From: Bacteroidaceae bacterium
GTDB lineage: Bacteria; Bacteroidota; Bacteroidia; Bacteroidales; Barnesiellaceae_A
DNA: 64,000 nt
Assembly: GCA_017532725.1 (NCBI GenBank)
Contig: JAFXIZ010000016.1
Coordinates: 43,317-107,316 of the forward strand
Direction of reading: 5' to 3'
Shown: positions 53,801 through 62,367 of the stretch, piece after piece
Layout of the letters: the number at the start of each line of letters is the position of its first letter
Numbering within the stretch: the first letter of the stretch is position 1
Translations under genes and position numbers: made by a program
The notes under the pieces: generated by a model
Databases searched by the model: none
What the model was told of the DNA's origin: nothing
The model's input: the letters and a program-made list of their open reading frames with translations, nothing else

Positions 53801-54799
53801 TTATAAGAAAGTGTCGGCCATACGGGCTATAGCCTTCTTTACCGATACTCTGCGATACAATATATCGTACATACAATCGAGTATGGGCATTGCTACCTCA
53901 TATTTGGCATTTACTTCGTGCATACATTTTGTTCCGTAGTAACCTTCGGCAATCATATCCATCTCTACTTGAGCCGACTTAACCGAATAACCACGACCAA
54001 TCATTGTACCAAAGTTGTGGTTACGGCTGAAGCGTGAGTAGGCTGTTACCAGCAAGTCGCCCAGATATACCGAGTCGCTCATATCGCGCACGAGGTCGGG
54101 CGATGCGGCTTGTATAAAGTGCGACATCTCCTTGAGGGCGTTAGAGGTGAGCATTGCTTGGAAGTTGTCACCGTATCGTGCGCCTTGACACACGCCCGAT
54201 GCGATGGCGTAAACATTCTTCAGCACAGCGCAGTACTCAATACCTATCACGTCGGACGATACGATGGTGCGCAACTTGTTGCACGAGAGTGTTTGTGCAA
54301 AGGCGCGAGCGCGTTCAATGTCCTGACAACCTACTGTGAGGTACGAAAGGCGTTCGAGTGCCACCTCTTCGGCGTGGCAAGGACCTCCTATCACTGCCAG
54401 CATATCATCCGATACTCCATACACTTGTTTGAAGTAATCGGTTACGATGAGGTTTTCATCGGGTACGATACCTTTGATGGCTGTTACAAGGAATTTTCCT
54501 TTGAGGTCGGCTGTGAGTTTTTCAAGGTGCGATTTCAGGTAAGGCGAGGGCGTTGCAAACAACAATGTGTCGGCTTTTTCTACCACTTCATTGATGTCGG
54601 AACTAAACTCGATGCGATTAGGGTCGAATGCAACATCTGAGAGGTATGCGGGGTTGTGACCGTCGCGAATAAAGTCGGCTATACGGTCGTCACGGCGCAT
54701 ATACCATAAGATTTTCTCCTCGTTGTTAAGCACCAATTTGGCGAGAGCAGTAGCCCAACTACCACCTCCCATAATGGCTATTTTACCGATGGGTTGCAT
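53801..54799 (-). CDS. gpsA: NAD(P)H-dependent glycerol-3-phosphate dehydrogenase
   Basis: N-terminal IAIMGGGSWATALAK Rossmann motif, then GPCHAEEVA and LKNVYAIA. Confidence 0.9.
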   Translation of the reverse strand: MQPIGKIAIMGGGSWATALAKLVLNNEEKILWYMRRDDRIADFIRDGHNPAYLSDVAFDPNRIEFSSDINEVVEKADTLLFATPSPYLKSHLEKLTADLKGKFLVTAIKGIVPDENLIVTDYFKQVYGVSDDMLAVIGGPCHAEEVALERLSYLTVGCQDIERARAFAQTLSCNKLRTIVSSDVIGIEYCAVLKNVYAIASGVCQGARYGDNFQAMLTSNALKEMSHFIQAASPDLVRDMSDSVYLGDLLVTAYSRFSRNHNFGTMIGRGYSVKSAQVEMDMIAEGYYGTKCMHEVNAKYEVAMPILDCMYDILYRRVSVKKAIARMADTFL

Positions 54800-54807
54800 A
54801 ATATGAT

Positions 54808-56538
54808 TTATTTTTGCACTTGTTCAATCCAACCTGCCACTTGTTCGACAGTAGGATTGGGTAAGTTGAGTTTAAATTTCTTATTGATGCCACATATTTC
54901 TTGATGCAGTTTGCCGGGGTTTACTTCGGCCATAGCGGCAACGGTCAGGTATCCGGCTTTCTGTATGGGGGCTACCCATTCGGTGGGTACGCCTACGGCT
55001 GTGTATGCTGCCTCGTTGTCGCGTTTTTGTACTTTCTCGGGGCGCATTTGGGGGAATAGCAATACCTCTTGAATGGTAGTTTGGTTGGTCATAAGCATTA
55101 CCAAACGGTCCATACCTATACCTATACCGGCAGTGGGGGGCATACCGTATTCGAGTGCGCGCAAGAAGTCTTGGTCGATAAACATTGCCTCGTCATCACC
55201 CTTCTCCGACAAGCGCAGTTGCTCCATAAAGCGCTCGCGTTGGTCGATGGGGTCGTTCAACTCCGAGTAAGCATTGGCAAGTTCCTTACCGTTAACCATC
55301 AACTCGAAACGCTCGGTGAGGTCGGGATTGTTACGGTGACGCTTGGTAAGAGGTGACATTTCGATGGGGTAGTCGGTAATAAAGGTGGGTTGGATGTAGT
55401 TTCCTTCGCACTTCTCACCAAATATTTCATCGATAAGTTTACCCTTACCCATTGTCTCGTCGGTTTCAATGCCCAATTGCTTGCATACGCCACGCAGTTG
55501 CTCCTCGTCCATACCGGTAATGTCTATGCCGGTGTGTTCTTTGATGGCATCTATCATAGTAACGCGTTTGAAGGGGGCTTTGAAACTTATTACATTGTCG
55601 CCTACGGGTATCTCGGTAGTACCGTTGGTGACCATACATATCTTTTCGAGCATTTGCTCGGTAAAGGTCATCAACCAATTGTAGTCCTTGTACGACACAT
55701 ACATCTCCATACAAGTGAACTCGGGGTTGTGTGTACGGTCCATACCCTCGTTACGGAAGTTGCGTGAGAACTCATACACACCTTCAAATCCACCTACGAT
55801 AAGGCGTTTGAGGTATAATTCATTGGCAATACGTAAGTATAGGGGAATATCGAGTGCGTTGTGGTGTGTGATAAATGGGCGTGCTGCTGCACCACCGGGG
55901 ATGGCTTGCAGTACGGGAGTATCTACCTCAACGTAGCCGTGCGAGTTGATAAAGTCGCGCATTGTGTTGAATACAATGGCACGTTTCATAAATATATCTT
56001 TTACGCCCTCGTTTACCACAAGGTCAACGTAGCGTTGTCGGTAGCGCAATTCGGGATCGCTGAAAGCGTCATATACCACGCCGTCTTTCATCTTTACGAT
56101 GGGCAGGGGACGCAACGACTTGGATAGTACGGTAAGTTCTTGTGCGTGGATAGTGATTTCGCCCATTTGTGTACGGAAAACGAAACCTTTGATACCCACA
56201 AAGTCGCCTATGTCGAGCAACTTCTTGAATACTGTATTGTACAACTCCTTGTCTTCGCCGGGGCATAAGTCATCGCGTGAGATATATACTTGGATGCGAC
56301 CTTGCGAATCCTTCAGTTCCATAAAAGAGGCTTTACCCATAATGCGACGGCTCATAATACGACCTGCCACCGATACTTGACGGGGCTCGGCATCATCGTT
56401 GAAAGACTCTTTGATTTCTGTTGTGTAGGCATCCACCGGATATTCGGCTGCAGGATAGGGTTCGATACCTATCTTGCGCAACTCATCCATACTGTTGCGG
56501 CGGATTATTTCTTGTTCGCTTAATTCTAAAATGTTCAT
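54808..56538 (-). CDS. lysS: lysine--tRNA ligase (class II) with the Bacteroidetes-type C-terminal extension
   Basis: OB anticodon-binding domain ([31 protein letters not shown]). Class II motifs [15 protein letters not shown] and [12 protein letters not shown] minus-strand TACTTTTG box lies at 56562-56569. Confidence 0.95.
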
Positions 56539-56771
56539 AATTTACAAAAAACTGTTTGGTGCAAAAGTACAAAAAAAAAGCGTGATGCCCATACTTTATT
56601 ATCGTATTTCGCACAATAGTGTGCCAAAACATTGCAAATGTGCGCTGAACGGTATTGTAGGGCTGATATTTGCGCACACATTTTTCTCTCCTGTCGCTTG
56701 ATATGCAAACGGTTGCACCGTCGAATGCAAGAAAAATTGTACCTGTTGTTGTGAGGTTTGTGATGCGACAT

Positions 56772-56779
56772 TACCTTTG
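56772..56779 (+). promoter_or_regulatory. -7 promoter box TACCTTTG at the head of the ORF-free island
   Basis: Matches TAnnTTTG on the plus strand. No protein gene follows. The first hairpin of the candidate RNA begins 2 nt later. Confidence 0.4.
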
Positions 56780-56780
56780 C

Positions 56781-57165
56781 AGTGTGATTAACGAATAGAG
56801 CGTTATCACACTCCACACGAGTTGTGTGGACCCCATACAATAGGATTAAGGTAAAGATTGGTTTTATCATCACACTGAATTAGGTTAATAGGTTTTTAAG
56901 GTTAGATTGTTATTAGATAGGTAAATTTGATTGTTTGTAAGGTTTTTGATAGATTAAGTGTAAAAAGATTGTGGTTAGTATGAAGGGTTCCCGCCGTGAG
57001 GTGGATGACCTATAAAGCCGAAAGGCACGATTGGAGGTTGCAGTTTGACTGCAACCTCCGGAGAGAGCAAGAAACTCTTTCCTCAGAATACGCAAAGGAG
57101 AATGTCGTGAGATGTTCTCCTTTGTTGCTTTATATACCGACATCAAGATGTGGGGGGCTTGTCGG
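56781..57165 (+). ncRNA. candidate structured non-coding RNA of unrecognised family
   Basis: A chain of hairpins read by hand. 56781-56812: AGTGTGATTAACG/CGTTATCACACT. 56813-56829: CCACAC/GTGTGG. 56991-57004: CCGCC-GTGA-GGTGG. 57017-57026: GCC-GAAA-GGC. 57033-57059: GGAGGTTGCAG/CTGCAACCTCC. 57060-57082: GGAGAGAG/CTCTTTCC. 57094-57123: AAAGGAGAA/TTCTCCTTT. 57137-57165: CCGACA/TGTCGG. GNRA loops appear only on the plus strand. I saw no coding signal. Boundaries are approximate. Confidence 0.35.
56847..56971. repeat. degenerate direct repeats T(A)AGGT-N(1-6)-GATT(G/A) inside a C-free tract
   Basis: T(A)AGGT starts at 56847, 56881, 56889, 56897, 56918 and 56938. GATTG is at 56856, 56904, 56929 and 56967. 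Composite units are TAAGGTAAAGATTG (56847-60), TAAGGTTAGATTG (56897-908), TAGGTAAATTTGATTG (56918-33) and TAAGGTTTTTGATAGATTA (56938-56). There is no C on the plus strand from 56876 to 56989. Confidence 0.4.
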
Positions 57166-57390
57166 GACTTATGGCTTGTTGGTCGCAATGTGGCTTATAG
57201 ATTGTAAAATTCCGGTGACTATACTATTACCTGTTGCACGTTGTGGTGGTGCGCAGCCAACTGATGATTTATAGGCTTATTGATCAAAATTAGTAGGTAA
57301 AATCGGTGCAATCTGTTGATTTTTATATATTTGCACGATTTGCATTGGAAATGGATAAAAGGTTTGACCAAAATATGATAAGGCAATGAT

Positions 57391-57439
57391 ACATACACAA
57401 CGAGCAGCCACGGTGTTAGTGACTGCTCGTTGTGTATGT
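57391..57439. terminator. 17-bp perfect hairpin just downstream of the HTH gene
   Basis: ACATACACAACGAGCAG (57391-57407) pairs with CTGCTCGTTGTGTATGT (57423-57439). It lies 15 nt after the HTH gene stop (57454) on the minus strand and directly after a 12-codon mini-ORF on the plus strand. Confidence 0.5.
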
Positions 57440-57453
57440 GAGGTAAAACTCTT

Positions 57454-57873
57454 TTATAATTTACCTAAATCTATATCGAAATGTTGTGCTATCTTGCGTT
57501 CGATGCCTTGATTGATGGCAATCTGTGTGCGCATATAGTCGAGTTGGCTTATGAGTAGGTCTATCTTTTCGTGTTGTTTTTTGATAGTTGTCTCCAGAGT
57601 TGATATCTTTTCGTTGATGATTTGTTGCCCTTGTAGGGGTTGCAGTTCTTTGTTTACAAGCATCTCTCCCTTGCCAAGCAGCAGCCACGATGGGTTTAAC
57701 TCTGGGTAGGTATTTAGTATCTTTACTATGCTTTCGTACGACAAGCCTTTACCACTGCGGCGTTGTTTGCCTAACGTTCCTACGGCAATGTGCGTTTGTA
57801 CGGTGATTTTGTTGTCGTTTAGCCCCTTGTATTGCATAAACTTGTCAAGCCGGCTGAATAGTGTGTCTTCCAT
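57454..57873 (-). CDS. helix-turn-helix DNA-binding protein with C-terminal coiled coil
   Basis: N-terminal HTH (LNDNKITVQTHIAVGTLGKQRRSGKGLSYESIVKILNTYPELNPSWLLLGKGEM) resembles the CI-repressor-like HTH proteins common in Bacteroidales. The C-terminal half is heptad-like (ISTLETTIKKQHEKIDLLISQLDYMRTQI). It has its own promoter box, minus-strand TATCTTTG at 57906-57913. Confidence 0.7.
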   Translation of the reverse strand: MEDTLFSRLDKFMQYKGLNDNKITVQTHIAVGTLGKQRRSGKGLSYESIVKILNTYPELNPSWLLLGKGEMLVNKELQPLQGQQIINEKISTLETTIKKQHEKIDLLISQLDYMRTQIAINQGIERKIAQHFDIDLGKL

Positions 57874-57943
57874 TATTCCTTTTCGTTAATTTGGGATTTA
57901 TATCGCAAAGATAATTACATTTGCCGATTTTAAAAGCATTTAT

Positions 57944-57985
57944 TTAAAAAAATACAGGGTCGATACATAGATGTATCGACCCTGT
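57944..57985 (-). terminator. intrinsic terminator after the GH13 gene
   Basis: ACAGGGTCGATACAT (57954-57968) pairs with ATGTATCGACCCTGT (57971-57985), a 15-bp perfect stem. On the minus strand it is followed by ATTTTTTT. Confidence 0.7.
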
Positions 57986-58008
57986 TGTATTATATTAACC
58001 GTGCTATG

Positions 58009-60807
58009 TTATTTCTTGATAAATTTCACGCTTTGGCTGTCGTTGCCGTTGGTGATGTTCAAGATATACATTCCCGAGGGGAGGTCGCGTACCTCAACAC
58101 AGTTGCCTTCGGCTTGTCTTACCAAGTTACCGGCTACGTTGTAGATTGACAACTCGCCTTGAGCGTTGGTATATACATAGTCGCTTGCAGGGTTGGGATA
58201 TACGCTATATTCCACCTTGTCGGCTACGGCGTCCTCAACACCTGTTACCTCGAAGTTGGTGTAGATAACGCAACTATGAGCAGGTACCGATTGGCTGTAG
58301 GTTGTGCTGCTTACTTGTATAGTTTCGTCGGTAAGCAAGTTGGTCCAAGTTCCGGTTTTGGGGAATGTGAGTGTGTAGTTACCTGCGCTGTTAGTGAGGT
58401 TGATGGCTACTACAACGCTCTTGTTGCCGTCTTTGCTGGTAAGTGTTACGAAACGACCGTTGGTCCAATCGCTTTCGTTCAACTTGTAGGTGAAAGTAGC
58501 ATCGGTGGTAAAGAGTTCGGCGTGGTAGTTACGCAAAGTATTCAACTTGGCGTATGCCATCCACAGACGGTGACGCTCGGGATCTTGAGCATACTCCCAT
58601 TTTACGGGTTTCTCGGCTGTACGGTCGCCGTTATAGTTGATGCTATAGTCGTAGCCAAGTTCACCAAATTGCCATATCATCTTAGGACCGGGAACGGTGA
58701 GGAATTGGGCAACGTTGGCAATTGCTTGATCCATACGAGTAGCAAGATTGGTGTCAACGTTGTCGTAGAGCATATTATCATCGCTACCGTTTGAGTTGCT
58801 ATCTTTGATACCACTCACACCCCATTTGGCTGCTTTGTATGTTGTGCGCTCTTCGTCGTGGCTCTCCATATAACCTACCAAGCCGTTCTTGGGCATATTG
58901 CTACCGTTGGCATACACTGAGGCAACAGCGCTTTGCGATTGGTAACCCATAGCCGATTGGCAGTAAGCGTTGTTCATATTTCTCCAGCATATCATACCGT
59001 CTTGAGCCAAAACTTTCTCTTCGCTTTCGGCGCAGAGGTGTTCAAGAATCATACAAGCGTCGGGACGTACTGCCTTGATAGCAGCGTTGTACTCTTTGAG
59101 GATATTGATACGGCTTTGGTCGTAGTTGCTGGCTGTGCTTTCGGTGCATTTACGGTTGGTGAAACCTTTTGTCAAGTCGAAACGGAAACCATCAATCTTG
59201 TACTCTTCGAGCAAGTAAACGAGGTTGCGTTTGATGTACTCTTTCACCTCGGGTACTTCGTGGTTGAAGTCGTGGAATACGCTGAAGGGGTGGGGTGCAT
59301 CTACGTTAAACCAAGGGTTGTTGGCCGATGTCTTGTTGTTGGCGCTGTCCCACCACAATTTACAGTAGGGGAAGTTACCTGTAGCGTGGTTATATACTAC
59401 GTCGAAGAATACGGCAATACCCAATTTGTGGCACTCGTCGATAAACTTGCGATAGTCTTCATCAGTACCATAAGCCTTGTCGAGAGCGTAGAAGTATGCA
59501 GGGTTGTAACCCCAACTGAGGTTACCGTCAAACTCTTGTACGGGCATCAACTCGATGGCGTTTACGCCGAGGCTTTGCAAGTAGGGGAGTTTCTCCATTG
59601 CTGCCTTCAACGACTTTTGTGTAGTGAAGTCACGAAGCAAAAGTTCGTAGATAACGAGGTTGTCGCGATTCTTAACAGTAAAATCGGTTACCTCCCACTT
59701 GTAGTCCGAGCCTGTTGTTTTGAATACAGTAGCAGGTTGTTCCCACGCTTTAGCAGGGAATTCGCGCAAGTTGGGATATACGTTTTTGTCTATCCATTTG
59801 TCGTTCCAGGGGTCGAGAATCTTGGTTGAGTAGGGGTCGGCAAAACGGATGGCGTTGCCACTCTTGGGAATAACGTGGTATTGGAAGGCATACTCTTTGC
59901 CGGGCTCAAGGCCGTTAATGGTTATCCACCAGCATTTGTTGGTGTTATCACGTTTCATCAAGTAGTCGCTCTTGATGTCCCAGTCGGTGTTGTCACCTAC
60001 CCAGAATACGCACTCGCTGTATGCACCGTTCTTATCGCAGTCGAAGAGAACGAATGTAACAGTGTTATCGTTGATGATGTTGATGCCCTCTTTAGTACCT
60101 GCAGGGCGAGTTTCGTTTACCACAGCACCACGCGCTGTAACTTTGGCTGAGACTTCGTGGTTTTCGCTTGCTGTAGTGGCTTTGGCTGTGAAAGTATAGT
60201 CGCCTTGCTTGGCAAATGTATAGTTTTGCTTGAGGGTCTTGCTACCTTTGGCAGTAAATGTTTCAGTGCCGTTAGGGCCTGTAACAGTGAGGGTGATGTC
60301 GGATGCTTTAGTAGCGTTAACAACAACATCGATAGCCTTACCGGCTTCAACGATACCCGATGAGGGAAGACCGGCTATCTCGCAGTAGAGAGCAGCATCT
60401 TGGCACTCAAGGTAGAAGTCGGGTTTGGTTTGTTTAGTACCATCGGCGTTGCGAACAACAACACCAATCTTGTTTATGGCAATAGTAGCGCCAAAGTAAT
60501 CGCGTACGGTGGGACCCATAACGAGTTTCCAAGAGCCGTCGCTTTGTTTGGTCATTTTGTATTTCTCGCTATTGTCGCACCATTTTGATGGGCTGTTTTG
60601 CCAAGTGTCGGTTTCGTCCAATACACCAATGTGTACGTACAGTTCATCGTTAGCACCGAAAATCTTATTGGTGTCTTTCCAAATGAAGGTTCCTTCTTTG
60701 TCGGCGTTGAGGGGGCTGGGATCGGTAGAGTAAGTACCTGTTCCTTGTGCCCAACAACTCAATGCGGCGAAGATTGTAGCAACTAATAGTAAAAATCTCT
60801 TTTGCAT
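58009..60807 (-). CDS. GH13 alpha-amylase family glycoside hydrolase with N-terminal Ig/CBM-like domains and T9SS CTD
   Basis: GH13 conserved regions FDVVYNH, DGFRFDLTKG, MILEHL and YMESHDE. Signal peptide MQKRFLLLVATIFAALSCWAQG. The C-terminus YSVYPNPASDYVYTNAQGELSIYNVAGNLVRQAEGNCVEVRDLPSGMYILNITNGNDSQSVKFIKK is a canonical type A CTD. Confidence 0.85.
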   Translation of the reverse strand: MQKRFLLLVATIFAALSCWAQGTGTYSTDPSPLNADKEGTFIWKDTNKIFGANDELYVHIGVLDETDTWQNSPSKWCDNSEKYKMTKQSDGSWKLVMGPTVRDYFGATIAINKIGVVVRNADGTKQTKPDFYLECQDAALYCEIAGLPSSGIVEAGKAIDVVVNATKASDITLTVTGPNGTETFTAKGSKTLKQNYTFAKQGDYTFTAKATTASENHEVSAKVTARGAVVNETRPAGTKEGINIINDNTVTFVLFDCDKNGAYSECVFWVGDNTDWDIKSDYLMKRDNTNKCWWITINGLEPGKEYAFQYHVIPKSGNAIRFADPYSTKILDPWNDKWIDKNVYPNLREFPAKAWEQPATVFKTTGSDYKWEVTDFTVKNRDNLVIYELLLRDFTTQKSLKAAMEKLPYLQSLGVNAIELMPVQEFDGNLSWGYNPAYFYALDKAYGTDEDYRKFIDECHKLGIAVFFDVVYNHATGNFPYCKLWWDSANNKTSANNPWFNVDAPHPFSVFHDFNHEVPEVKEYIKRNLVYLLEEYKIDGFRFDLTKGFTNRKCTESTASNYDQSRINILKEYNAAIKAVRPDACMILEHLCAESEEKVLAQDGMICWRNMNNAYCQSAMGYQSQSAVASVYANGSNMPKNGLVGYMESHDEERTTYKAAKWGVSGIKDSNSNGSDDNMLYDNVDTNLATRMDQAIANVAQFLTVPGPKMIWQFGELGYDYSINYNGDRTAEKPVKWEYAQDPERHRLWMAYAKLNTLRNYHAELFTTDATFTYKLNESDWTNGRFVTLTSKDGNKSVVVAINLTNSAGNYTLTFPKTGTWTNLLTDETIQVSSTTYSQSVPAHSCVIYTNFEVTGVEDAVADKVEYSVYPNPASDYVYTNAQGELSIYNVAGNLVRQAEGNCVEVRDLPSGMYILNITNGNDSQSVKFIKK

Positions 60808-60906: not shown

Positions 60907-62367
60907 TTAGAGTTTTGTAACAGTGTAGTAAGGAGCCTGAGCGCAGAAGTAGAAACGTACTTCATAGTCGCCTGCTTCATCAACTTTAAAGTTAGCACCG
61001 TCGCGAGCGAGTGTGCCGTCGCCTGCACCTGCATCACCGAAGTTGATAGCCCAATCTTCGTTGGCACGAATCTTGAACTCAGCACCGGCTTCCAATGTAA
61101 CTGTTGCTACCAAGTAGTCCATACCTGCCTCTGCTGAGAGAGTCATAGGAACATCGGGAGCACCCCAGCCGTTGAAACTACCTACAAGACCCCAAGTGTT
61201 CACTGTGTTGATGATATTGAGAGTCAAGTTAGTAGCATCGAAAGAAACCTCATAACTGAATGCGCTGTATTGAGTGATGTTACCAGCACCACCGTCGGTA
61301 GAGAGGAGCATCGAGGGAGCCTCGGCAGCAGCCTCTTCGCCGGCACCGTAGTTAGTACCGTTCCAGTCGGCTTGAGTAGAAATCTTCCAACCGTTAGCAC
61401 CTGCACCGTTCAATACGATCCAACCTTGTGCGGGAGCACCTGCAACGCTGTAAAGACGTTGACCGTCTGTTTGGCTCCAACTACTGAAATCACCTACAAC
61501 GAAGTATTCGATTACATCGGGAACTACCTCAACAGTGTAAGTGTAAGCCTCCATATTAAGAGTTACCTTGTAGTTACCTGCCTCGGGGAATTGCATACAA
61601 CCTGCAGCCGAGTTGTTATCAGCGAGGTTACCTGTGAGGGCAGTATTTTGGTCAGCCTCTGTGTTACCAAGTACAGTATCCCACGAGTTGTTGTCGAGAG
61701 CCGATTGAGGAGCAACCTTCCAGTTTGTAGCACCTTCTACAGTAACTGTGATAGTGAAGATAGGATCTTCATACACGTCTTTACCACTGTGGCTGAAAGG
61801 CATAGTAGCAGCAGCAGCGAAATCCCATCCGGGAACATCACCGATGAGGTAGTATGCGCTCTCGATAGGAGTAGCAACGGGTGTAACTGTAGCAGCGATT
61901 ACGTTAGAGATGATAGTAAAGTTACGGCCTTCAACGGCTTTAACTTTAGCATCCAAACGTGTGCTGAAAGTATTGGGTTGAGGACGTTTGCCAAAGAGAG
62001 TTTGTACCTTAACGTTAAGGTCGGCTTTAGCAACTTTAGCAACGTTGCCTTCAACTGTTACGGGCACTTCAACAGCGTTTGCCATATCTTCGGCAGCAGC
62101 CATTTTGAGTGTGTACTCAAGTGTAGTACCTTCGGTCAATTCGGGAGTTGCGCTCAAGTCGATTGTGAACGCAGAGATTGAGTCGGCAGCATAAGTGTTC
62201 AAGTCGATTGCTTGAGCATACTCCTCAGCAGTGATAGCGATTGCTACAGTAGCAGCAGCCTCGGGATCGTAGCCTATAGGATCTTGTGCGGGCTCGATTT
62301 CGGGTGTACAAGCCGAGAAAGCTACCACACCTGCCAACAATGTGCTGAAAATCGATATTTTTTTCAT
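60907..62367 (-). CDS. SusF/SusE-family outer-membrane lipoprotein (starch-binding, CBM-like repeats)
   Basis: Lipoprotein signal MKKISIFSTLLAGVVAFSAC. Repeated beta-sandwich modules contain W...G..(Y)(K/E)V-type blocks (NWKVAPQSAL...AGNYKVTLNMEAYTYTVEV; GWKISTQADW...; EFKIRANEDWAINFG...GDYEVRFYF). Its position in the Sus-like locus also supports the call. Confidence 0.65.
   Translation of the reverse strand: MKKISIFSTLLAGVVAFSACTPEIEPAQDPIGYDPEAAATVAIAITAEEYAQAIDLNTYAADSISAFTIDLSATPELTEGTTLEYTLKMAAAEDMANAVEVPVTVEGNVAKVAKADLNVKVQTLFGKRPQPNTFSTRLDAKVKAVEGRNFTIISNVIAATVTPVATPIESAYYLIGDVPGWDFAAAATMPFSHSGKDVYEDPIFTITVTVEGATNWKVAPQSALDNNSWDTVLGNTEADQNTALTGNLADNNSAAGCMQFPEAGNYKVTLNMEAYTYTVEVVPDVIEYFVVGDFSSWSQTDGQRLYSVAGAPAQGWIVLNGAGANGWKISTQADWNGTNYGAGEEAAAEAPSMLLSTDGGAGNITQYSAFSYEVSFDATNLTLNIINTVNTWGLVGSFNGWGAPDVPMTLSAEAGMDYLVATVTLEAGAEFKIRANEDWAINFGDAGAGDGTLARDGANFKVDEAGDYEVRFYFCAQAPYYTVTKL

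Follow-up and report, generated by a model that had tools for sequence, protein, structure and literature searches.

Among the motif-array sponge RNAs of bacteria are CsrB, RsmZ and RsmY, which antagonize CsrA and RsmE in Gammaproteobacteria, and CrcZ and CrcY, which sequester Hfq/Crc in Pseudomonas. The motifs of CrcZ are A-rich (AANAANAA) and bind Hfq. RRM-1 proteins are, to our knowledge, the only global RNA binders known in Bacteroides. Hfq, ProQ and CsrA have not been identified there (PMC13370968). This report concerns a 64,000-nt stretch of contig JAFXIZ010000016.1 from a Bacteroidaceae bacterium (hereafter the window), in which a 114-nt tract without any cytosine on the plus strand lies within a candidate non-coding RNA gene of about 350 nt at 56784-57135. 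It is very probable that the gene is real and that the tract forms its core, unstructured and under selection.

The RNA resembles CsrB, RsmZ and RsmY in its size (all near 350 nt), in its many copies of a short G-rich motif and in its 3' terminator, and the titration of copies of a small RNA-binding protein would be the shared logic. However, CsrB-type RNAs present A(N)GGA in many hairpin loops, whereas here (A/U)AGGU and GAUUG stand in one unstructured C-free stretch, and only a minority of the motifs read AGGA. Repeated single-stranded motifs, a length near 400 nt and a one-sided base composition are features shared with CrcZ and CrcY, but the tract consists of G, U and A and carries WAGGU (W, A or U). 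Neither comparison is accompanied by an Rfam match, and the CsrA and Hfq partners are those not identified in Bacteroides. GibS and FopS, the small RNA (sRNA) ligands of RbpB, are presumably much shorter than this RNA. They share with it their order-level hosts, a TAnnTTTG-type promoter, an intrinsic terminator, a long conserved single strand and a low GC content (PMC7366714, PMC11697453). Their single strand is at the 5' end, whereas that of the present RNA is about 150 nt long, internal, C-free, repeat-bearing and set between structured domains; moreover, FopS is deposited in Rfam, and Rfam scans of the window matched nothing of the kind. By analogy, the RNA would work most like the motif-array sponges CsrB/RsmZ and CrcZ without being a member of either group, as motif, structural context and host proteins differ.

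Promoter, terminator and homologues

The tract sits in a 915-bp gap between two minus-strand genes, lysS and the gene of a 139-residue protein. The transcription unit proposed for this gap has the following elements.

56749-56751, plus strand: putative -33 element TTG, 20 nt upstream of the -7 box
56772-56779, plus strand: putative -7 box TACCTTTG, of TAnnTTTG type
56784-57135, plus strand: candidate gene of a non-coding RNA of about 350 nt, its 5' end placed to within about 3 nt
57092-57135, plus strand: predicted intrinsic terminator, a 15-bp hairpin at 57092-57125 followed by a U-rich tail

Relatives of the locus were gathered via homologues of the 139-residue protein, via lysS and via an exact-pattern metagenome scan. 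They represent 11 distinct lineages of uncultured Bacteroidaceae or Bacteroidales, sampled from gut or rumen, and each has the same gene order: amylase gene, 139-residue gene, RNA (on the opposite strand) and lysS. An earlier note on this DNA had placed the tract inside a candidate RNA, and the alignment of these lineages bears it out: a unit running from promoter to terminator and enclosing the tract is conserved in all of them. At the -7 box, TA[C/T]CTTTGCA is invariant in 11 of 11 lineages while the DNA upstream diverges; in the -33 element the TG never varies and the T before it hardly does. The Bacteroides promoter consensus is TTTG-N19-21-TAnnTTTG, and the spacing of TTG-N20-TAccTTTG fits it. 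In the terminator, eight of the 15 pairs change on both sides, and on the opposite strand no U run follows the hairpin.

The boundaries of conservation coincide with those of the unit. Similarity of the gap to L011, the nearest relative in GTDB genomes (lysS 91% identical), covers only 56539-57131 and ends right after the terminator hairpin, and with the RNA alone as query the alignment spans promoter to terminator in six further loci. The minimum free energy (MFE) z-score of the RNA is -6.6. Because lysS has its own TAnnTTTG box near the start codon on the other strand, the RNA is read as a separate divergent unit. Ryan et al. (2020) asked of high-confidence sRNAs that they be intergenic, with their own promoter or transcription start site and a Rho-independent terminator; of these, a predicted promoter motif and a predicted terminator are present here, both of them conserved.

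No open reading frame (ORF) is conserved on either strand of the RNA region among the relatives. A 112-residue minus-strand ORF at 56535-56873 is broken by indels of 1, 4, 6 and 9 nt in L011, a short ATG ORF at 56979 is not kept, and a 65-residue antisense ORF called in L093, L094 and L096 covers the same region, where the alignments contain non-triplet indels. Rfam 15, scanned with permissive filters, gave no match up to E=1 in 54000-60000, and over the whole window only a tRNA-Pro reached the gathering score; the known families 6S, T-box, lysine riboswitch, FopS and CsrB were all unmatched in these scans.

Beyond the 11 lineages, none of 79 other Bacteroidales lysS loci carries the RNA or the 139-residue gene, and neither an nhmmer profile nor a covariance model of the 3' domain found a distant homologue in them. 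A 33-bit match to the covariance model (L012, 3436-3767) is the terminator of rpsO, upstream of lysS in Coprobacter secundus; the match in L106 and other exact-pattern matches were set aside as chance. No viral, phage or plasmid homologue of the RNA was found. The RNA family is previously undescribed and so far known from a single clade of uncultured Bacteroidaceae of the gut or rumen.

Composition and motifs of the tract

The plus strand is free of C across 56876-56989, exactly as the earlier note had read it, and these 114 nt (A35, G30, T49) are far from the local composition. Elsewhere in the window, C-free runs reach at most 44 nt, and no G-free run exceeds 48 nt; an independent-base model with the window C frequency of 0.21 predicts 2e-8 runs of at least 114 nt without C in 64 kb. 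The question whether similar tracts are common can be answered for 0.93 Mb of fetched loci, where C- or G-free runs of at least 70 nt are rare outside homologues of the RNA. C is missing from the spacers as well as from the motifs, on one strand only, and the three plus-strand frames of the tract contain 17 stop codons in all. A G-quadruplex was considered and rejected by inspection, the GG tracts being too widely spaced and their register not conserved. One other long stretch lies downstream of lysS in a Muribaculaceae metagenome-assembled genome (L073, 8803-8921): 119 nt of G, A and T with GGAGAG- and GGTTTAG-like simple repeats, unrelated in sequence to the tract.

Within and just upstream of the tract, T(A)AGGT starts at 56847, 56881, 56889, 56897, 56918 and 56938, with AGGT spacings of 33, 8, 9, 20 and 21 nt, all of which had been correctly listed. 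GATTG starts at 56856, 56905, 56929 and 56967; the second of these had been placed at 56904, the other three where they are. Where six copies of T(A)AGGT are present, shuffling these 143 nt with dinucleotides preserved gives 1.0 (P=2e-4, an optimistic value, as the motifs were picked after the sequence had been viewed). The plus-strand density of the whole window predicts 0.17, and other 143-nt segments of the 64 kb never hold more than three. GATTG occurs four times against 0.24 in shuffles of the region, but its cluster is less exceptional because one other 143-nt segment, at about 62157-62300 inside a SusE/F-like gene, also has four copies on the plus strand. Four composite units had been proposed, of which three strictly fit AGGT-N(1-7)-GATTG (at 56849, 56899 and 56919); the fourth requires N=8 and ends in GATTA.

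The motifs are dispersed recurrences rather than the degenerate tandem units first described, and Tandem Repeats Finder detects no tandem array in the tract. Two pairs of direct repeats of 12-13 nt accompany them.

56892-56903 and 56933-56944, inside the tract: direct-repeat pair 1, GTTTTTAAGGTT/GTTTGTAAGGTT
56904-56916 and 56966-56978, inside the tract: direct-repeat pair 2, AGATTGTTATTAG/AGATTGTGGTTAG

These pairs suggest that part of the central domain arose through an old internal duplication. The impression that the AGGT spacings lie near multiples of a helical turn did not survive a Rayleigh test at 10.5 nt, which is not significant in the window (P=0.33) or in 10 homologues (P=0.14-0.94). 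An array resembling the ToxI RNA of type III toxin-antitoxin systems, or a CRISPR-like array, was rejected as well: ToxI consists of exact tandem repeats of about 34-36 nt with a toxin ORF after them on the same strand, whereas here there is no tandem repeat by Tandem Repeats Finder, and a terminator and no conserved ORF lie downstream.

Conservation of the central domain

The tract is the main part of a longer central domain, whose features are as follows.

About 56832-56989, plus strand: central domain, predicted to be single-stranded, about 150 nt, including the tract at 56876-56989
56834-56870, plus strand: most conserved block, CATACAATAGGATTAAGGTAAAGATTGGTTTTATCAT, with the first WAGG-WAGGU-GAUUG unit
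56927-56947, plus strand: the other stretch of strong conservation, TTGATTGTTTGTAAGGTTTTT, with almost no variation in 9 of 11 lineages

The 22 nt at 56846-56867 (TTAAGGTAAAGATTGGTTTTAT) are identical in all 11 lineages, and column identity is 0.93 for 56842-56861 and 0.83 for 56930-56948. The block at 56834-56870 could form a weak A-U/G-U hairpin, whose pairs never vary. RNAalifold gives the central domain a consensus energy of -1.6 kcal/mol with no covarying pair and no conserved fold, and full-length MFE folds disagree among lineages over this domain.

Cytosine makes up 3-6% of the central domain in 11 of 11 lineages, in contrast to 16-25% of the 5' and 3' domains. In most relatives the run is broken by one or two C, and the longest C-free runs measure 41-112 nt. 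Among variable columns of the central domain, C and T co-occur 20 times versus 51 for A and G, as compared with 53 and 63 in the 3' domain. Selection against C on the RNA-like strand would be expected to produce such a C/T deficit. In the 3' domain, unpaired positions retain 9% C; the core is therefore more extreme than a general loop bias.

The motifs are kept in number and not in place. Each central domain contains 6-9 copies of WAGG (7-9 in 10 of 11 lineages) as opposed to about two in shuffles, the most diverged lineages, L103 and L115, included; GAUU(G) occurs four to six times per RNA in every lineage. The extended consensus is WWAGGUW, and AGGU and GAUUG are often paired as AGGU-N2-6-GAUUG. 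Motif positions and spacings drift between lineages, with 10.5-nt periodicity in none. A motif enriched over composition, kept in relatives and drifting in position is the sequence signature of a multivalent sponge. The suggestion of a sponge-like display of unpaired UAAGGU/UAGGU at the RNA level thus gains a conserved unit, covariation in the flanks, no conserved fold in between, and C depletion and motif number kept despite divergence; protein binding, the remaining part of it, stays conjectural.

Structured flanks

The domains on either side of the core are predicted to fold into the following helices.

56784-56809, plus strand: P1, 5'-terminal hairpin, its stem in the window extendable to 56782-56811
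56812-56830, plus strand: P2, hairpin, 5/7 pairs changing on both sides and 93% of alignment cells paired
56983-57013, plus strand: P4, outer stem P4a around hairpin P4b with a GNRA loop (GUGA/GAGA)
57017-57026, plus strand: P5, hairpin with a GAAA-type loop, from covariation and single-sequence folds
57033-57059, plus strand: P6, long hairpin, a 12-bp perfect inverted repeat with compensatory changes relative to L011
57060-57082, plus strand: P7, hairpin with a GAAA loop in most lineages, from the same kinds of evidence as P5

Compensatory substitutions in P1/P2 and in the 3' domain are those of a structured non-coding RNA. P1 is maintained through A-U/U-A swaps and G-U wobbles. For P1 and P2 together, 83% of cells are paired versus 25-53% with slid partners, six of 16 pairs change on both sides, and 18 cells are changed on both sides versus 7.9 in shuffles. 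Because G-U pairs are present, these hairpins are read as RNA pairing rather than as DNA palindromes.

The 3' domain, which comprises P4-P7 and the terminator, has three GNRA-type loops. Its cells are 94.2% paired versus 47-57% with slid partners, and 12 of its 31 pairs change on both sides versus 3.9 +/- 1.5 in shuffles (0/500 reach 12). Independent single-sequence folds recover the same helices in 10 of 11 lineages. The 5' strand of P4a is formed by the last bases of the C-free tract, and single-sequence folds give this stem with differing sequences (AAAGUU/AACUUU, ACAGCA/UGCUGU, GUGGU/GCCAC). In P4b, three of five pairs change on both sides; at P6, most single-sequence folds place a hairpin whose sequences differ.

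Proposed mechanism and alternative explanations

The RNA may consist of two 5' hairpins, an unfolded C-poor core bearing the motifs and a compact 3' domain with terminator, the core displaying its motifs to a multivalent ligand; this full description is offered tentatively, at somewhat less than an even chance. Taken by itself, the proposition that the tract is a platform for a multivalent ligand stands about evenly balanced. The central domain would act as a multivalent single-stranded display at the RNA level, where a factor with specificity for G/U/A motifs would be captured in multiple copies and thereby sequestered or scaffolded. The absence of C would leave the many G (26%) without G-C helices, so that the motifs are exposed, and the structured ends would shield the RNA from exonucleases. 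In addition, a long untranslated strand without C would offer Rho neither YC dimers nor a C>G bubble; the RNA that Rho requires is single-stranded over 60-80 nt, rich in C, poor in G and contains YC dimers (PMC6144790).

A protein ligand is favoured because motif number is kept while positions drift, because the motifs are short, and because the only published sequence preference of the group's abundant binders of single-stranded RNA fits. For RbpB of B. thetaiotaomicron, the dissociation constant is 5.1 uM with a 3x GUAGGAUA probe, made of G, U and A only, and the C/U-rich 3x UCCUGUGC probe is not bound (bioRxiv 10.1101/2021.04.27.441718); in vivo, RbpB contacts single-stranded parts of sRNAs (PMC11697453). 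The invariant block of the present RNA contains AUAGGAUUA and reads AUAGGAUUAAGGUA. The most likely factor would be a small RRM-1 RNA-binding protein of Bacteroidota, although this identification is possible rather than probable.

Several points weigh against this interpretation. The RbpB motif was obtained with in vitro probes and in another genus, and what is shared with it is a short core, UAGGAU. Searches with generic RRM queries found no RRM gene in the 64-kb window or in the fetched loci. A run of 22 nt that is identical in every lineage would sooner be expected of a base-pairing seed, or of a site with high specificity, than of a degenerate sponge motif. The choice of motifs after viewing the sequence favours enrichment, and the transcription, start and 3' end of the RNA are predicted from sequence features. 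The family is known from a single clade with fixed synteny; the tie between the 139-residue protein and the tract is this synteny alone, and co-inheritance tells nothing about partners.

The invariant stretches are the strongest argument for a different kind of ligand, namely RNA. The RNA would be a base-pairing regulator or RNA sponge whose long seeds pair with G-poor RNAs carrying ACCUU- or CAAUC-type sequences, its partners being A/C/U-rich Bacteroidetes translation-initiation regions or other sRNAs, and C would be absent because the partners lack G. The 22 nt at 56846-56867 and the roughly 20 nt at 56927-56947 are (nearly) invariant, as seeds would be. Trans-acting sRNAs of Bacteroides use single-stranded seeds of 30-50 nt on initiation regions, a GH13 gene included (GibS; PMC7366714), FopS sRNAs act on susC start regions (PMC11697453), and the RNA adjoins a GH13/SusE-F-like locus. 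However, exact complementary 11-mers in the window number six against an estimated 4.5 or so expected, and against 39 start regions the tract reaches a duplex energy no different from that of its shuffled versions (-25.3 versus -25.8 kcal/mol). On long inputs, RNAduplex yielded unrealistic looped duplexes. No recurrent complement of at least 10 nt occurs in the flanks of the 11 loci. The complement search covered 64 kb of the genome and is weak negative evidence. Motif turnover at constant motif number is also unexpected for seeds. Base pairing is possible but on balance unlikely.

The core could also have no ligand and merely be long, unpaired and invisible to Rho and nucleases, tethering the 5' and 3' domains, with the motifs as by-products of a G/U/A-only composition and old duplications. 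The two direct-repeat pairs point to such internal duplication, the 9% C at unpaired positions of the 3' domain is likewise low, and Rho avoidance alone could account for C depletion (PMC6144790). Nevertheless, the motifs exceed mono- and dinucleotide shuffles in every lineage, and the core holds the most conserved sequence of the RNA (the 0.93 identity of 56842-56861), which is unexpected in a spacer. A passive linker is improbable.

A DNA-level reading assigns T(A)AGGT and GATTG to the neighbouring 139-residue protein of the XRE type as double-stranded sites, in an operator or iteron-like array through which it would regulate the RNA gene or act as a roadblock to its transcription. The earlier note had described this protein as having a helix-turn-helix (HTH) and a coiled coil, and the structure prediction agrees: the AlphaFold model (mean predicted local distance difference test score 86.5) has a five-helix N-terminal domain, resembling an XRE/lambda-repressor-like HTH, and one long helix at residues 79-131 that would form the coiled coil. 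Its best PDB fold matches are DNA-binding domains of phage/XRE repressors (P22 c2, 434 Cro, TP901-1 CI, P2 C and 186 CI; probability 0.97-1.0), and P2 C and 186 CI bind direct repeats. The N-terminal domain is common to the 139-residue protein and S24-peptidase repressors; sequence searches of Pfam, NCBIfam and the PDB with the protein gave no match. The gene stands beside the RNA in 11 of 11 lineages, and three of these loci were retrieved independently of the protein, but this co-occurrence is confounded by fixed synteny.

The array itself lacks the properties that such operators would have. Its AGGT spacings have no helical phasing and vary by lineage, and there is no tandem array; C depletion is confined to one strand and includes the spacers; and the sites lie at +60 to +200, within a transcript bounded by promoter and terminator. 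Across 10 lineages, the DNA upstream of the 139-residue gene shows no enrichment of T(A)AGGT or GATTG. The distant homologues of the protein are repressors that adjoin Mu-like prophage genes, and their surroundings contain neither such an array nor such an RNA; the lysS-linked copy may be a domesticated prophage repressor. One distant homologue (L116, 3696-4402) is divergent beside small genes, a 659-residue protein and an AAA_22 protein, a layout of Mu-like transposable prophages. Iteron arrays and the direct-repeat operators of phage repressors share with the tract a short motif in one orientation near a gene for a DNA-binding protein, but an iteron array has regularly spaced tandem copies of about 17-22 bp that are nearly identical, whereas the units of the tract are degenerate, 5-6 nt long and irregularly spaced. 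A Rep gene, a GC-skew switch and plasmid or phage homologues are all lacking, and the tract lies inside a structured RNA. A replication origin was rejected on the same absence of a GC-skew switch in the 64-kb window and of a rep gene among the neighbours. The phased, iteron-like array for the HTH protein that had been proposed is accordingly not supported, and a DNA-level operator or iteron-like array is quite improbable.

Least probable of all is titration of 30S subunits through pairing of UAAGG/AGGU with the anti-Shine-Dalgarno sequence of the 16S rRNA 3' tail: the motifs partly complement a tail of the E. coli type and SD-like GGAGG/AAGGAG sequences occur in the 3' domain, but the matches are only 4-5 nt, GGAGG is buried in the P6 and terminator stems, the Bacteroidetes tail ends in CCUCCUUUCU rather than CCUUA, and the anti-Shine-Dalgarno sequence is occluded in Bacteroidetes ribosomes.

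Gene neighbourhood

The genes that flank the RNA are as follows.

54808-56538, minus strand: lysS (lysyl-tRNA synthetase), then gpsA and pgi
57454-57873, minus strand: gene of the 139-residue protein, convergent with the RNA, preceded by the GH13 amylase and SusE/F-like genes

Adjacency to lysS recalls the T-box leaders, and the invariant block has AAA, a Lys codon, in a possible loop and UGGU able to pair with the ACCA 3' end. However, the RNA has no Rfam T-box match and points away from lysS in its transcription. Its terminator is constitutive, lacks an alternative antiterminator and has no co-oriented gene downstream, the next gene being convergent. We know of no T-boxes in Bacteroidota. 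A tRNA-Lys- or T-box-like device was rejected for its wrong orientation, and 60 loci contained no tRNA-Lys gene for comparison. The lysyl-tRNA synthetase carries, past its class II core, a C-terminal DUF4332 extension at residues 497-575 (E=3.8e-7).

On the other side, the GH13 amylase gene (58009-60807, minus strand) encodes a C-terminal sorting domain of type IX secretion (Por_Secre_tail) and follows the SusE/F-like gene (60907-62367, minus strand); a secreted amylase in a Sus-like locus is kept in every relative with the RNA. Between the amylase and 139-residue genes, a perfect 14-bp hairpin (57954-57985) has a terminator score on both strands and a long T run in the minus-strand reading only (ATTTTTTTAA). 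Immediately downstream of the 139-residue gene is a long inverted repeat (57393-57440, acatacacaacgagcag...ctgctcgttgtgtatgt), which is probably the terminator of that gene. The 320 bp separating it from the RNA terminator are not conserved in L011. In L011, an 80-nt G-free stretch (2736-2815) lies directly upstream of the 139-residue homologue, in its promoter or 5' untranslated region; in the window no such stretch of that length is seen.

Significance

The RNA defines a new family with an unusual C-less display domain and a narrow distribution, for which the function put forward here is hypothetical. The most specific form of the proposal, a dedicated Bacteroidota sponge RNA that would titrate RRM-1 global RNA-binding proteins (the RbpA/B/C family) through a cytosine-less array of UAGG type and double as a means of escape from Rho, is doubtful. 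A literature search found no described example of a protein-sponge RNA in Bacteroidota and no description of an RNA antagonist of RRM-1 proteins.

Post-transcriptional control in Bacteroides is only now being mapped. An RNA whose two structured ends hold out a motif-laden, C-less strand of 110-150 nt is a concrete candidate for an antagonist or scaffold of RRM-1 proteins, and it suggests a design rule by which omitting C would keep a G-rich strand both unpaired and unattractive to Rho. If the ligand is RNA rather than protein, the molecule would still be an unusually long multi-seed regulator.

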